From: an uncultured delta proteobacterium
GTDB taxonomy: Bacteria > Myxococcota_A > Polyangia > Palsa-1104
Reading direction: 5' to 3'
Assembly (NCBI GenBank): GCA_963785725.1
Contig: CAWAWS010000033.1
Coordinates: forward strand, 288,001 to 352,000
DNA length: 64,000 bases
Within the stretch, counting starts at the first letter, position 1. Each line of letters begins with the position of its first letter. Under the pieces are notes generated by a model that made no database searches, had not been told where the DNA came from, and was given only the letters and a program-made list of their open reading frames with translations. This document shows, piece after piece, positions 5,384-14,145 of the stretch. A program made the position numbers and the translations under genes.

Positions 5384-5965
5384 CTAGCTGGCGCGGCCGA
5401 CGGCGGTGGCGCGCTCGACCTCGATGAGCCGGCCGCTCTCGACCTGGTAGACGTAGCCGTAGATGGGGATGGCGCGCGGCACCAGCGGATGATTGCGGAT
5501 GCGCTCGACGTCGGTGGTGACGCTCTCGGCCTGCTCGCGGATGGTGAGCCAGTCGATGTAGTCGCCTTGGCGCGAGCCGGGACCGGCGCCGACGTCGCGC
5601 CACTGCTTGCCGTCGTGCTGCGCCGTGTGCAGGCTGGACGCGAGCAGGCCGCGGATGATCTCGTCGCTGAACAGCTCCATGCCGCAGCTCGAGTGATGAA
5701 TGACGAACCACTCCTTCGTGCCCAAGAGCTTGTGCGAGATGACGAGCGAGCGGATGGCGTCGTCGCTGGCGCGGCCGCCGGCGTTGCGGATGACGTGCGC
5801 GTCGCCCTCGGCGAGGCCGGCGTATTTGGCCGGATCGAGGCGCGCGTCCATGCAGGTCAAGATGGCGAAGCCGCGCGCCGGCGGCAGCGCCAGCTTGCCC
5901 TTGTCGCCGAACTCGGACGCGTAGCGCGCGTTGGCCTTCAAGACGTCTTCGCGAATCTGGCTCAT
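5384..5965 (-). CDS. Beta-class carbonic anhydrase (clade D-like)
   Basis: [15 protein letters not shown] and HHSSCGM zinc-ligand motifs; GAGGAG RBS. Confidence 0.92.
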
Positions 5966-6001: not shown

Positions 6002-6074
6002 TGGCGGCCCCTTCCGGGATTCGAACCCGGCTCGACGGTTTTGCAGACCACGCCATCCCAGATGGCAAGGAGCC
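6002..6074 (-). tRNA. Atypical tRNA with GCA (Cys) anticodon, G73 discriminator and encoded CCA
   Basis: GGCTCCTT GCCATC TGG GATGGC GTGGT CTGCAAA ACCGT CGAG CCGGG TTCGAAT CCCGG AAGGGGCC G CCA folds into a cloverleaf with a canonical T-arm and anticodon loop. Confidence 0.8.
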
Positions 6075-6086
6075 AGAGTGTCTTCG

Positions 6087-6182
6087 TTACGACTGCGACT
6101 CGTGACGCTGCGCGATCGCCAGCAGCACGAGGTGGAACAACACGATGCCGAAGCCGAGCGTGTAGTCGACGACGCGGCTCAT
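6087..6182 (-). CDS. 31-aa hydrophobic small protein ([31 protein letters not shown])
   Basis: ATGA overlap with the upstream stop; one TM-like segment; GC3-rich codons; below the ORF-track cutoff. Confidence 0.55.
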
Positions 6183-6505
6183 CGGGCGGCGCCCGCCGCC
6201 GCTATCGGCGCGACGTCCATGCCCGCGAGGATCGCCGCCAGTCGCGCCGGGCTGCAGCGTCGATAGAGCACGACCGGCACGCCGTGAGCGCGCGCCGCTC
6301 GCCGCGCGACGTGCACGGCGCCGTGGCTGTTGACGTCGGTGACGACGATGAGAAAGTCGACGCCGCGCGCCAGCAGATCGAGCGTGTTGCTGCCGCGTCC
6401 GCCGATGTGGCCCGAGTGAAAGGCGATCGAGTGCCCGCTACGCTCGGCGATCTCGCGATAGAGCGACTCGGTCCGTTCGACGCCGCCGACAATACCGATT
6501 CGCAT
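6179..6505 (-). CDS. DUF2325-like small Rossmann-fold protein
   Basis: MRIGIVGG...DFLIVVTDVNSHGAV...ARAHGVPVV pattern. Confidence 0.75.
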   Translation of the reverse strand: MRIGIVGGVERTESLYREIAERSGHSIAFHSGHIGGRGSNTLDLLARGVDFLIVVTDVNSHGAVHVARRAARAHGVPVVLYRRCSPARLAAILAGMDVAPIAAAGAAR

Positions 6506-6508
6506 AGA

Positions 6509-6895
6509 TCACCAGTGCCAAACCTGCTCGTAGCCTTCGAGCAGCTCGGCGAACGCGTGCGCGGCGATCGGCGTCGGTCCGTCGATGATCTCGTCGCGGG
6601 CGATGCCGCGCCGTTTCGCGTCATCCTCGACGTAGAACACGCGCACGCCTTTGTCGCCGAGCCGGCGCACGTCGTCGGCGAGCCGCGGCGGCTGCGTTTG
6701 CCGGCGTTCCCCGAAGGCGAGCCCGCTCGCGTCCTGATCGCGCACGACGTAATTGACCGCGTTGCCGCGCAGGAGCACGTCGGTGTCGGCGCCATTGCCG
6801 CGCAGCGACGTCACCAGCCACAAGACCGGATCGTCCTGCTCCTCGAGCGTCGCGCGATAAGCGGTCTCGACGATCTGCAAAATCTTCTTCGACAT
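6509..6895 (-). CDS. DsrE-superfamily protein (DsrH/TusB-like)
   Basis: VLLRGNAV and VFYVEDDAKRRGI motifs; GGAG RBS. Confidence 0.7.
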   Translation of the reverse strand: MSKKILQIVETAYRATLEEQDDPVLWLVTSLRGNGADTDVLLRGNAVNYVVRDQDASGLAFGERRQTQPPRLADDVRRLGDKGVRVFYVEDDAKRRGIARDEIIDGPTPIAAHAFAELLEGYEQVWHW

Positions 6896-6904
6896 GACGG
6901 CTCC

Positions 6905-7318
6905 TTACTTCGTGGGAATGACGAGCGTGTTGACCGAAGCCGCGACGAACTTGGCGAGGTCGGCGGGGCTGCCGCGGCGCGTGCCGGCGACCGCTTCGGC
7001 GACGCCGCGCTCGTCGACGCACAGGCCGCAGTTGACCCAATCGACTGTGACGGCGCGCGTCTCGGCCTCGGCGAGGATGGCGGCGATCCAATCCTTCGTC
7101 GTCGGATGATCTTCGAGGGCGGCGTCGCGGCCGTGCACGGCGTTGGCGTGCGGCGTCTGCTTGACGAACGGCAGCGCCACGGCGCCTTCGTAAGCGAAGA
7201 CGTTGACGTCGAAGCCGCGCTTGACGGCACGATCGATGAGGCGCAGCGCCGTCGTCGTGCGCGCGTTCTCGTAAGGCGGATCATTGAGCACGAACGTCAG
7301 CGATTGCTTGGTCGACAT
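6905..7318 (-). CDS. DsrE/TusD-like sulfur-relay protein with Cys motif
   Basis: LNDPPY, VFAYEGAV and VNCGLCVDERG (Cys aligned with the TusD persulfide Cys region). Confidence 0.8.
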   Translation of the reverse strand: MSTKQSLTFVLNDPPYENARTTTALRLIDRAVKRGFDVNVFAYEGAVALPFVKQTPHANAVHGRDAALEDHPTTKDWIAAILAEAETRAVTVDWVNCGLCVDERGVAEAVAGTRRGSPADLAKFVAASVNTLVIPTK

Positions 7319-7327
7319 CTTGTCCTC

Positions 7328-7654
7328 CTAATGCCAGAGCGTCGTGTGGCCGGCGGCGAGCCGATCGATGACCGCGTCGAGGTCCGCCGGCGTGATGGCG
7401 GACGCCAGCCGTCCGGCGTGGATGCCGCGCTCGCGCAGCGAGAAGTCGTCGGCGAGGATCGCGACGCCGCTCGCGCGCAGCTCGTCGAGCACGCTCGATT
7501 CGGCCTGTGCGCGCGCCGGCAGCACGCCGTTCTGCACGAGGAAGAACGTCACCTCGTGCCGCTTGCGCGCCAGCGTCGCCGCCAGCCGATAGAAGTAATT
7601 GTCGTCGCCGGACTCGAAGGGATCGCGCGATTCGATCAGCAAATACTTGGCCAT
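7328..7654 (-). CDS. DsrE-superfamily protein (DsrF/TusC-like)
   Basis: SRDPF, VTFFLVQNGV and SLRERGI motifs; AGGAGGAG RBS. Confidence 0.75.
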   Translation of the reverse strand: MAKYLLIESRDPFESGDDNYFYRLAATLARKRHEVTFFLVQNGVLPARAQAESSVLDELRASGVAILADDFSLRERGIHAGRLASAITPADLDAVIDRLAAGHTTLWH

Positions 7655-7810: not shown

Positions 7811-7839
7811 ACTATCCGTTATAACGGACGCGCTGTCAA
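7811..7839 (-). promoter_or_regulatory. Sigma70-type promoter overlapped by the perfect palindrome TCCGTTATAACGGA (7815-7828)
   Basis: TTGACA (7839-7834), 17-bp spacer, GATAGT (7816-7811). Confidence 0.7.
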
Positions 7840-8288
7840 GGGCGTAAATAGCGCCACTTCTTCTCCGGCTTGCCGTGCTTGCCGCGGCGATCGGTCGTCC
7901 AGCCGCTGCAGGCGGACATGTGCTTGAAGACATCGGCGGGATCGGCCAAACGATCGGGCACGATGGGCTCGCTGCACAGCCAGCAGATCGTGACCTCGGC
8001 CGCCTCTTCGGCGACGCGCCTGGGGCCTTTGACGGCGACGCGCAGCACGAGCTTGGCGCGCCGCAAGTGCTCGAGCGCGATCCTCGCCGCGCCGGATTCG
8101 AGCGTGCCCAGCCGAATCTCCTCGGCGACGCGGCGCTCGGTGTCGCGCAACGCGTCCAGCGAGGTCGGCACCTCGGCGCCTTGGCGCGCGACGCCCGCGT
8201 CCTCCGCGACCCGCTCGGCGAGCGGCGCCGATCGTTCCGCCGCGAGCAGTTGCGGCACTCCCAAGCGGCGTTGCTGAAGCATGCCCAT
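7836..8288 (-). CDS. Hypothetical protein with C-terminal C-x2-C...H-x3-C Zn-finger-like motif and basic tail
   Basis: CWLC...FKHMSAC; AGGAG RBS; immediately downstream of attenuator 2. Confidence 0.6.
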   Translation of the reverse strand: MGMLQQRRLGVPQLLAAERSAPLAERVAEDAGVARQGAEVPTSLDALRDTERRVAEEIRLGTLESGAARIALEHLRRAKLVLRVAVKGPRRVAEEAAEVTICWLCSEPIVPDRLADPADVFKHMSACSGWTTDRRGKHGKPEKKWRYLRP

Positions 8289-8462: not shown

Positions 8463-8492
8463 CTTTTATCCGTTATTGCGGATGAATGTCAA
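8463..8492 (-). promoter_or_regulatory. Promoter with TTGACA -35 box and TCCG-N6-CGGA operator (8469-8482)
   Basis: TTGACA at 8492-8487; same architecture as the promoter at 7811-7839; -10 box less clear. Confidence 0.6.
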
Positions 8493-8541: not shown

Positions 8542-8555
8542 TCCGCTATTACGGA
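8542..8555. promoter_or_regulatory. Third TCCG-N6-CGGA operator-like site
   Basis: TCCGCTATTACGGA. Confidence 0.5.
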
Positions 8556-12409: not shown

Positions 12410-12472
12410 CCGACCCATGTTCGACCGCGCGAGAGACGGAATCTCTCGATGACCCGCAACCTGGAGGAACAG

Positions 12473-12658
12473 ATGAAAGACGTGAAGGACGAACTGAAGA
12501 AGCTGAGCAACGAGGCGCTGGCGAGCGTTCGCGGCGGTACCGTCACGCTGCGTCCGCCGTCGCTCGGCGGAGTCGGCGGCGGCAGCGCGCTTCTTTGCGG
12601 CGGCGATGCCATGGCCGAGAGCTGCGTTGCCATCATCCACATCCCCGCCAAGCAGTAA
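12473..12658 (+). CDS. Putative RiPP precursor with double-glycine leader
   Basis: GGAGGA RBS; MKDVKDELKKLSNEALASVRGG leader; core has 2 Cys; 11 bp upstream of the radical SAM gene. Confidence 0.75.
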   Translation: MKDVKDELKKLSNEALASVRGGTVTLRPPSLGGVGGGSALLCGGDAMAESCVAIIHIPAKQ

Positions 12659-12669
12659 GGAGTAGCCAC

Positions 12670-14145
12670 ATGTCCTCGAAGATCGCTGGCGCCTATCAGA
12701 CGTCTCGTTACAACTTCTTCGTACCGACGATCGAGGCGACGCTGCTTTACAACTCGCTCCACGGAAGCGTCGTCGGTCTGGGCTCGGCGCAAGCGGCCAA
12801 GCTTGCTTCGGCGCTGGCCAAGCCGGGCGTCGCGGTCTTCGAGGATGATCTACCACCCGAGCTGTTCTTGCAGCTCAGCGAAGGGCACTTCGTCGTCCCG
12901 CCGGGAACGGACGAGCTGGCGCTCATCAAAGAGCGCTTTCGCAAGGCGCGCAATGACGCGCCGGCGATTCTGACGATTACGACGACCATGGATTGCAACC
13001 TCGGCTGCTACTACTGTTATGAAGAGCGCTCCGGCGATCAGCTGACCCAGCAAGGCGATCTGGAAGCGCTCGTGGCCGAGGCGCGGCGCCTCGTGACGCG
13101 GCAAAACAAGACGACGCTGCATGTCGATTGGTATGGCGGCGAGCCGCTCCTGAACGTCGAGTTTCTCGAGGTGGCGTCGGCGCGTCTGTGTGCGCTCGCC
13201 GATGAGCTCGGCGTGCATTACGAGGCGTCGATCCTGACCAACGGCACCTGTTGGCCGGAGGATGTGGGCGCCTTCGTGGCGCGACATCGCATCGTCCGCG
13301 TGCAGATTCCGTTCGATGGGCTCAAGGAGAATCACGACAAACGAAGGCATTATCGCAAGGGTTATGCGCCTTCGGAGGACGCGTCGAGCTTCGAGCTGGC
13401 CGCCGCGCTCGTCGGAAAGCTGCTCGACCACACGCGCGTCGACATCCGCTGCAATATCGATCGTTCCAACGGCTCGGACTTTGTCGGGCTGATTCGCTTT
13501 GCACGCGAGCAGGGCTGGTTCGACAAGCGCTTCGCCGCGGTCATTCAACCGGCGCGCTTGACGAAATACTCCGAGCACACGTCGTTCATGCACAAGGCCG
13601 AGCTCGTTCGCAGCGACTTCGACACCGTTCGAGAGGAGATCGAGCGCGCGGTTCCCACGCATGTCGAAGTGCAAAACTCGAAAGTAGCGGCGTTTCCCGA
13701 GCCGCGCTTCTCGGTCTGCGCGGCGCTCAATGAAGATGCCGTCGTCGTCGGCGCCAATGGCTCGCTCTATCGCTGTGGCTTGCAGGTGGGCGAAAAGCAC
13801 CGCGTCGTCGGCGAGCTTCATGGCGCCGCGGCCAAACCGGACAACAAGCGCCATTTACCGCTTCTCGGCGCCGCCGGTAATGACGTCGAATTCTGGCGCA
13901 CATTCGATCCGACGGAGCGCCCGCGCTGCTCGGCCTGCACGTTCTTGCCGATCTGTTGGTCGGGTTGCCCCAAGGTGCATCTCGAAGGCGACGCACTGGC
14001 GATCGCACGGCAAGGCGAATACTGGCGCACCAACCTTCCGCGGCAGGTCGCCAACGGGCTCGGGCTTACGCTCGACGGAGAGTACGCGTTTTCGGCGCAA
14101 GACCAGTTCCCGGATGGCGAGCCCGAGACCCTCTCGCACTCGTAA
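12670..14145 (+). CDS. Radical SAM/SPASM peptide maturase
   Basis: CNLGCYYC, WYGGEPLL and SPASM CSACTFLPICWSGC; N-terminal SRYN...LLYNSLHG RRE-like region. Confidence 0.9.
   Translation: MSSKIAGAYQTSRYNFFVPTIEATLLYNSLHGSVVGLGSAQAAKLASALAKPGVAVFEDDLPPELFLQLSEGHFVVPPGTDELALIKERFRKARNDAPAILTITTTMDCNLGCYYCYEERSGDQLTQQGDLEALVAEARRLVTRQNKTTLHVDWYGGEPLLNVEFLEVASARLCALADELGVHYEASILTNGTCWPEDVGAFVARHRIVRVQIPFDGLKENHDKRRHYRKGYAPSEDASSFELAAALVGKLLDHTRVDIRCNIDRSNGSDFVGLIRFAREQGWFDKRFAAVIQPARLTKYSEHTSFMHKAELVRSDFDTVREEIERAVPTHVEVQNSKVAAFPEPRFSVCAALNEDAVVVGANGSLYRCGLQVGEKHRVVGELHGAAAKPDNKRHLPLLGAAGNDVEFWRTFDPTERPRCSACTFLPICWSGCPKVHLEGDALAIARQGEYWRTNLPRQVANGLGLTLDGEYAFSAQDQFPDGEPETLSHS

Follow-up and report, generated by a model that had tools for sequence, protein, structure and literature searches.

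The two major determinants by which cysteinyl-tRNA synthetase (CysRS) recognises its tRNA are the discriminator base U73 and the anticodon GCA (PMC9976931). Non-canonical tRNAs are known from several systems, and six of these bear comparison with a gene found in the window, the whole 64,000-nucleotide stretch of DNA analysed here. The gene (6002–6074, minus strand) encodes a tRNA with a GCA anticodon, G73, an encoded CCA and an acceptor/T branch that is capable of an 8/5 arrangement. Annotation tools file it as an ordinary tRNA-Cys, despite the loss of the main cysteine identity base.

The selC* tRNA-Cys and the allo-tRNAs (Mukai et al., PMC5389517) are likewise supernumerary and non-canonical, with a lengthened acceptor stem, and selC* can carry GCA. 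They differ in having 12-bp branches (8/4 or 9/3) and a long variable arm, neither of which is found here, where the T-stem of 5 bp is supported by compensatory changes and the arm is short. Moreover, selC* has U73 and often has selB* or cysS* as neighbours (PMC5389517), whereas the present tRNA has G73, a DUF2325 gene and a sulfur-type operator. Bacterial tRNA-Sec is similar in its 13-bp branch, which this tRNA is able to form, in G73 and G1-C72, in a long D-stem with a small loop and in its anticodon arm. Unlike bacterial tRNA-Sec, the family formed by the window gene and its homologues has GCA, a short variable region and no link to sel genes, and of the classes compared tRNA-Sec is the least similar to it.

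Stress induces the L-array tRNAs, most of which are charged (PMC8421152). With these and with phage tRNA-Cys and tRNA-Trp the family shares its D-arm core, a compact body, a supernumerary and patchy occurrence and, as a prediction, induction by stress, but it is solitary, has one extra base in the branch and combines a Cys anticodon with a Trp-type G73. The mixed identity recalls tRNA-ProX and its partner ProRSx, where the anticodon of one amino acid is joined to the acceptor signal of another (PMC10404621). tRNA-ProX genes adjoin a synthetase gene (PMC10404621), whereas no synthetase lies beside the family tRNA, for which mistranslation is only a candidate function. The combination of GCA with G73 occurs in tRNA-Cys of Methanospirillum and Methanoregula (PMC8762117), although that case is archaeal and accompanied by matching changes in CysRS, and the part of the account available mentions neither an extra base nor a link to a regulon. 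Finally, tRNA-Pyl shares G73, G1-C72, a 1-nt linker, a small D-loop and a 3-nt variable region (PMC7609411), but its anticodon is CUA rather than GCA. Full-text literature, searched mostly without subscription papers or the supplements of Mukai et al., contained no short-arm G73 GCA tRNA belonging to a sulfur regulon. It is a real gene for a probably undescribed variant tRNA, with a predicted regulon.

Structure and distribution of the tRNA family

ARAGORN assigns the 73-nt gene as tRNA-Cys(GCA), and its drawing shows an acceptor stem of eight pairs, a T-stem of 5 bp, four bases in the variable region, G73 and the encoded CCA; by alignment, the D-stem has 5 bp around a UGG loop and the variable region measures 3–4 nt. 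The Cys anticodon, short variable loop and G-CCA end reported in the first-pass annotation are thus seen again. The highest-scoring Rfam model is that of tRNA-Sec (RF01852), with 32.6 bits against a gathering score of 47, and the long variable arm of that class is missing. Compared with a canonical tRNA-Cys, the anticodon is retained, U73 is lost and the 7/5 branch is broken by an extra, invariant A in the 3' strand.

The 8-bp acceptor stem on a 5-bp T-stem described earlier holds for the T-stem, which is supported by compensatory changes. The eighth acceptor pair (U-A) is compatible with an 8/5 fold in all rows but is invariant across 21 distinct rows, and because it never varies the 8/5 fold is allowed but not proven, the alternative being a 7/5 fold with a bulged A. 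Likewise, only the shorter form of the 5–6 bp D-stem first proposed is upheld, since position 9 varies freely across the 23 loci (T in 12, G in seven, A in two and C in two), which removes the sixth pair. A pair using position 23 was also ruled out, as two rows have A there.

Contigs from three further soil runs match this region. Two of them (X1 and X2) span the whole tRNA gene and the third (X4) reaches position 6065; no altered letter is listed within the gene and the flanks differ, these being contigs rather than raw reads, with position 73 close to the edge of the X2 match. With identical letters in other runs and with homologues in existence, a misassembly is very improbable.

The family was discovered through one pattern scan of metagenome contigs, based on the D-loop core, the GCA anticodon loop and the T-loop. 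This gave 49 matches, which were divided by reading the loci into 17 near-identical solitary homologues, 16 array-type tRNA-Cys and 16 chance matches that are not tRNAs. When 401 genomes of the class were searched by pattern, the tRNA turned up in the window's own genome, in 4 of the 67 genomes from a second family (f17), which the source names of a linked protein suggest to be Kofleriaceae, and in none of the 14 genomes of its own family. A covariance model found it in 6 of 138 f17 genomes. (The totals of 138 and 401 include G662, a non-carrier flagged as unpublished, which affects only the denominators and one selA row.) As one genome match is the same as a metagenome locus (L235 = L137) and is counted once, there are 23 distinct loci, the window included. 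No member was found by a DNA search of 60 related genomes, which returned two weak unrelated matches, by an RNA model run over 150 genomes of the phylum, or in the viral contigs and plasmids searched.

A clean G73 is present in 21 of the 23 loci, and all 16 of the array-type GCA tRNAs from the same metagenome scan have U73. Neither position 73 nor the extra A formed part of any search pattern, so the conservation of both is real. The constancy of GCA is partly built in, because the search pattern dictated the anticodon of the 17 metagenome loci; it is also found in 6/6 covariance-model matches, four of which are training sequences and one identical to a training sequence. Constraint on the family is imperfect, given that L123 has U73, L239 a U33C change and L108 a shortened 3' strand. 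The first two of these (L123 at 179–251) offer natural variants of the tRNA.

Mean column identity within the family is 92%, across differing gene contexts. In an alignment of 22 sequences the structure is paired in 99.2% of cells and five pairs are altered on both sides, a number reached in 2 of 500 shuffles, in a test of a kind that kinship inflates. These compensatory changes lie in the acceptor and T stems, and the register of the acceptor is fixed by the exchange of G-C for U-A at pair 7. The nucleotide at position -1 is U in 22 of the 23 loci, which, like the purine at 73, agrees with the preference of RNase P. Judged from these sequence comparisons, the tRNA family is real, rare and patchy, and the gene can be put down neither to sequencing error nor to decay, which bears out the first-pass annotation on this point as well as on the missing main determinant for CysRS.

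As to origin, the D-arm core, which was part of the search pattern, recurs in array and phage tRNAs. In viral contigs 33 of 36 matches to it have the Trp-type anticodon CCA and one has GCA, and the core is also carried by the tRNA-Trp of the array in the window's own genome. Pairwise scores place array Cys and array Trp tRNAs level. We infer that the family tRNA descends, by the gain of one base, from an array-type tRNA for either Cys or Trp. The family tRNA is itself solitary, being the only tRNA in the window and accompanied by at most one other tRNA at any family locus.

The own genome holds two atypical tRNA arrays, one of 20 genes (C3:124966–129345), followed by an ORF that resembles RtcB, and one of five genes (C39:626782–627456). 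The phage and array tRNA-Trp and tRNA-Cys (viral loci L143–L178, and array loci among L094–L142) have a compact D-arm with a linker of 0–1 nt, a 6-bp anticodon stem and a 3-nt variable region; their layout resembles that of tRNA-Pyl and they are often missed by ARAGORN.

Neighbouring genes and a predicted sulfur-starvation operator

The gene directly upstream of the tRNA in the window encodes a DUF2325 protein of 108 amino acids (6179–6505, minus strand; Pfam E 1e-17). DUF2325 is of unknown function, with one example regulated by PerR (PMC9426514). The structure model (pLDDT 87) has a small flavodoxin/receiver-like fold and resembles generic receiver, NDT and TIR folds with Z about 10 and no clear leader; the protein was considered as a synthetase or an RNA-binding fold and rejected as either, the matches being only to these generic folds. 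No solved relative was significant by sequence, and a search of the Atlas gave no usable match.

In 17 of the 23 loci the tRNA is immediately preceded, on its own strand, by a DUF2325 gene, often with just a few bases between the stop codon and the tRNA. In the converse direction, the DUF2325 subfamily is present in 15 of 138 f17 genomes, of which four carry the tRNA, adjacent in three, and 11 are without such a tRNA. The window's own genome has two further DUF2325 genes with no tRNA called alongside. The tRNA is thus an optional addition.

Upstream of DUF2325, in the same predicted operon and on the same minus strand, lie three genes of DsrE type: a DsrE-family protein identified by Pfam (7328–7654), a Cys-bearing protein with a weak TusD/DsrE match (6905–7318) and a DsrE/DsrH-like protein (6509–6895). 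In about 75 of 80 related loci, from many phyla, the members of this trio (6509–7654) stay together, and the trio has no frequent neighbour beyond itself in those 80. On the other side, a gene of the beta-carbonic-anhydrase family (5384–5965, minus strand; Pfam) begins 36 nt past the tRNA and is likely to be on its transcript, although it is not conserved as a neighbour. A possible small ORF for a hydrophobic peptide of 31 amino acids (6087–6182, minus strand) overlaps the DUF2325 stop codon, to which it may be translationally coupled, and ends 12 nt before the tRNA; no counterpart was found in the other family loci examined.

At least one sulfur-related Pfam family lies near the tRNA in 10 of the 23 loci, a count to be read with many contigs being short and with no random-locus control. 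The families counted were TauD, the NMT1-type binding protein, luciferase-like monooxygenase, FMN reductase, the Cys/Met PLP enzyme, rhodanese, class V aminotransferase and DsrE. Some of these neighbours presumably correspond to ssuA, ssuD and ssuE. In four loci (L109:1745–2821, L184:5903–7003, L185 and L186:6823–7956) the gene immediately after the tRNA encodes a TauD-family dioxygenase, and in L248 such a gene follows DUF2325 where the tRNA is absent.

A perfect palindrome, TCCGTTATAACGGA, is found at 7815–7828 and is the predicted operator of a sulfur-starvation regulon. It is overlapped by the spacer and -10 box of a sigma-70-type promoter match (7811–7839, minus strand; 10/12), which points into the operon and marks its predicted start. 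Within the window there are three matches with at most two mismatches (7815–7828, 8469–8482 and 8542–8555), against 0.01 expected. Allowing three mismatches, 16 of 23 loci have the palindrome no more than 2 kb upstream of the tRNA, and two of the loci that lack it offer under 180 nt of upstream DNA; a control of 47 synthetase loci, comprising 164,744 mostly coding bases, contains one site at the same threshold. Four of the six loci without DUF2325 have the palindrome 36–131 nt before the tRNA, and it is also present in 10 of 13 DUF2325 loci that lack the tRNA. The earlier reading of the locus, centred on the tRNA and its sulfur-related neighbours, had overlooked both the conserved DUF2325 partner and this palindrome.

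Since the motif was first spotted in the tRNA loci, a scan of the own genome (G000) is the more independent test. This returned 27 sites with at most two mismatches, whose neighbours include a porin O/P with an XRE-cupin gene, a sulfate permease, a YeeE-type sulfur transporter, a second DsrE-like/DUF2325 unit and an FMN reductase/monooxygenase cluster; several sites adjoin no sulfur gene. Elsewhere, the palindrome precedes sulfonate, sulfate and thiosulfate genes. An XRE or XRE-cupin gene lies near L107, L121, L140 and L185, and also at a perfect site on C2. In E. coli the XRE protein SutR (YdcN) has been titled a regulator of sulfur utilization (PMC4797297). The predicted regulon is SutR-like in having an operator common to sulfur-scavenging genes, with some of its sites lacking a sulfur gene. 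The local XRE-cupin protein may bind the palindrome.

From the arrangement of its upstream DNA the family tRNA seems to belong to a nutrient regulon and is likely to be expressed when sulfur is short. The palindrome represents a candidate sulfur-starvation operator for these soil myxobacteria, to which a DUF2325 subfamily is tied. Between the motif sites of the window lies an ORF of 150 amino acids (7836–8288) that has a Cys-x2-Cys motif and no Pfam or NCBIfam match. By eye, we take this motif to recall the zinc fingers of DksA/TraR.

Charging and possible role of the tRNA

The own genome, which is 88% complete, has a canonical U73 tRNA-Cys (C6) and a second U73 tRNA-Cys in the 20-gene array (C3), as well as tRNA-Sec (C25) and selB. 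With a canonical and an array-type U73 tRNA-Cys in the genome, the G73 tRNA is not needed for ordinary decoding. A separate canonical tRNA-Cys, raised as a possibility in the first-pass annotation, is therefore present, but no second CysRS, its companion suggestion, was found: the own genome has a single, ordinary CysRS and each of five carrier genomes has one, all five being of ordinary appearance and still needing to read U73 tRNAs. Neither SepRS nor a second CysRS was found in the own genome or the carriers searched. PylRS was likewise absent, both above the cut-off in the own genome at its 88% completeness and as any PylRS-level match in the five carriers, which further separates the family from tRNA-Pyl. 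No dedicated synthetase common to the five carriers, such as the first-pass proposal of charging by another enzyme might call for, was found within the four synthetase Pfam families searched, and an extra PF00579 enzyme beyond the usual two occurs in only two of the five. These five genomes yielded no T-box partner and all have a Rel/SpoT gene. As selA is near-universal in f17 (125 of 138 genomes, all six carriers among them), it does not track the tRNA and is uninformative as a correlate.

SerRS requires a long variable arm, and the 100-fold weaker binding of tRNA-Sec to EF-Tu is attributed to its 8-bp stem (PMC7609411). In a published identity table the Ser set includes a large variable region and the Trp set includes C34, A1-U72 and G3-C70 (PMC9976931); the family tRNA carries no complete identity set. 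This, together with the one CysRS and the lack of a shared extra enzyme in the five carriers, favours a reading in which the tRNA is predicted to be an uncharged Cys-codon decoy of the sulfur-starvation regulon that damps the use of cysteine. The reading is held tentatively, falling somewhat short of an even chance, and the same caution applies to the ‘decoy or regulator’ proposed in the first-pass annotation, with which it agrees. The palindrome would be bound by a repressor, perhaps the XRE-cupin protein whose gene is often close by, and would be released when sulfur is short. RNase P, with 3' trimming or CCA addition, would then yield the mature tRNA. G73 would prevent charging by CysRS and the absence of a long arm charging by SerRS, whilst the 8-bp acceptor stem would disfavour EF-Tu. 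The empty tRNA, keeping G34-C35-A36, would compete for the anticodon site of CysRS, and/or would occupy ribosomal A sites at UGC and UGU together with Rel, so that ppGpp would rise. For this, Rel would have to accept a tRNA with a 13-bp branch. The outcome would be a throttling of cysteine-rich protein synthesis. The contrast between G73 in 21 of the 23 loci and U73 in all the array-type GCA tRNAs speaks for the decoy, as do the compensatory pairing, the U at -1, the U73 tRNA-Cys genes that make it dispensable for ordinary decoding, the palindrome upstream and the Rel/SpoT gene of all five carriers. Against it stand the U73 of L123, a nested member, the deviations of L239 and L108, the rarity of the family in f17 (6 of 138), the 11 of 15 DUF2325-bearing genomes without the tRNA, the motif sites with no sulfur gene beside them and the charged G73 tRNA-Cys of some methanogens (PMC8762117).

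The decoy predicts any non-U base at position 73, so the retention of G may point to positive recognition. This brings in regulated mistranslation, which is rather unlikely, in which a host synthetase would load a sulfur-free amino acid for insertion at UGC and UGU, which would relieve stalls and spare sulfur. Mistranslating tRNAs occur in nature (PMC10404621, PMC5389517), and the closest identity matches of the family tRNA are to Ser, with G73, C72, G2-C71, C11-G24 and G30-C40 present, and to Trp, with G73, G2-C71, C35 and A36 present (PMC9976931), the body also resembling array-type tRNA-Trp. Yet the long arm for SerRS, the C34, A1-U72 and G3-C70 of the Trp set and the G3-U70 for AlaRS are all missing, no dedicated synthetase was found in the four families searched, the extra PF00579 enzyme being confined to two of the five carriers, and an 8-bp stem would impede EF-Tu. 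A serine-inserting tRNA would also be obtained more simply by changing the anticodon of tRNA-Ser, which is not the pattern seen. The specific proposal that a regulon-induced, short-arm 8/5 tRNA charged with a sulfur-free amino acid recodes cysteine codons to spare sulfur is unlikely; if true, it would amount to a programmed, nutrient-controlled rewriting of the genetic code. Just as doubtful is an auxiliary but true tRNA-Cys, for which the host CysRS would tolerate G73 and the odd fold, giving extra Cys decoding or a slow-charging reserve in starvation. GCA, G1-C72 and G2-C71 are retained, L123 has U73, a G73 tRNA-Cys is charged by an adapted CysRS in some methanogens (Methanospirillum/Methanoregula; PMC8762117), and 23 of 26 array tRNAs of Anabaena, likewise inducible, are charged in vivo (PMC8421152). 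Against this, the carrier CysRSs look ordinary and must read U73 tRNAs, and nothing would then hold G73 or the extra A in place in nearly all copies; array-type Cys tRNAs uniformly have U73 (16 of 16).

The remaining explanations are less probable still. As a tRNA-shaped processing signal, the element would allow RNase P and 3' nucleases to split or stabilise a polycistronic sulfur-starvation mRNA, its anticodon and charging being irrelevant. Its place inside predicted operons, often a few bases past the DUF2325 stop, and the U at -1 and purine at 73 that suit RNase P are in keeping with this, but in several loci (such as L122 and L137) the gene that follows is encoded on the other strand, and GCA is kept in all six model matches, even if most are training sequences; the idea is improbable. 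The supposition that the tRNA serves the adjacent DsrE/Tus-like sulfur relay as substrate or carrier, or mimics tRNA-Sec for SelA or SelB, is highly improbable. It draws on the shared predicted operon in the window, on the tRNA-Sec traits of 8/5 and G73 and on the presence of selA in f17, its carriers included, and of selB and tRNA-Sec in the own genome. The relay had been suggested in the first-pass annotation, along with a search for homologues of the tRNA beside DsrE genes, but none of 80 loci of DsrE relatives (the best 80 of 180) has the tRNA and the DsrE family is absent among scanned neighbours at other tRNA loci, so a DsrE partnership is rejected. The Tus relay thiolates U34, and the family tRNA has G34. 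For the SelA route, the near-universal selA of f17 carries no weight and, with no long arm, there would be no Ser-tRNA for SelA to act upon. A pseudogene, integration scar or assembly error is largely refuted: the patchy distribution, the three deviant copies and a low folding signal independent of ARAGORN (the folding energy by itself is unremarkable, z -1.3) would suit it, but it is opposed by the column identity over varied gene contexts, the compensatory pairs, the same letters in contigs of other runs and the lack of any integrase family among scanned neighbours.

Either leading reading, the decoy or the recoding tRNA, would if true be new biology, namely a purpose-built uncharged regulatory tRNA or the recoding of Cys codons in sulfur shortage. 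A short-arm tRNA with a 13-bp branch is also a natural probe of the specificity of synthetases, EF-Tu, SelB and Rel.

Elsewhere in the window (12449–14145), a short precursor-like ORF is followed by a radical SAM/SPASM maturase that scores below all NCBIfam cut-offs, and the pair forms a candidate RiPP cluster.
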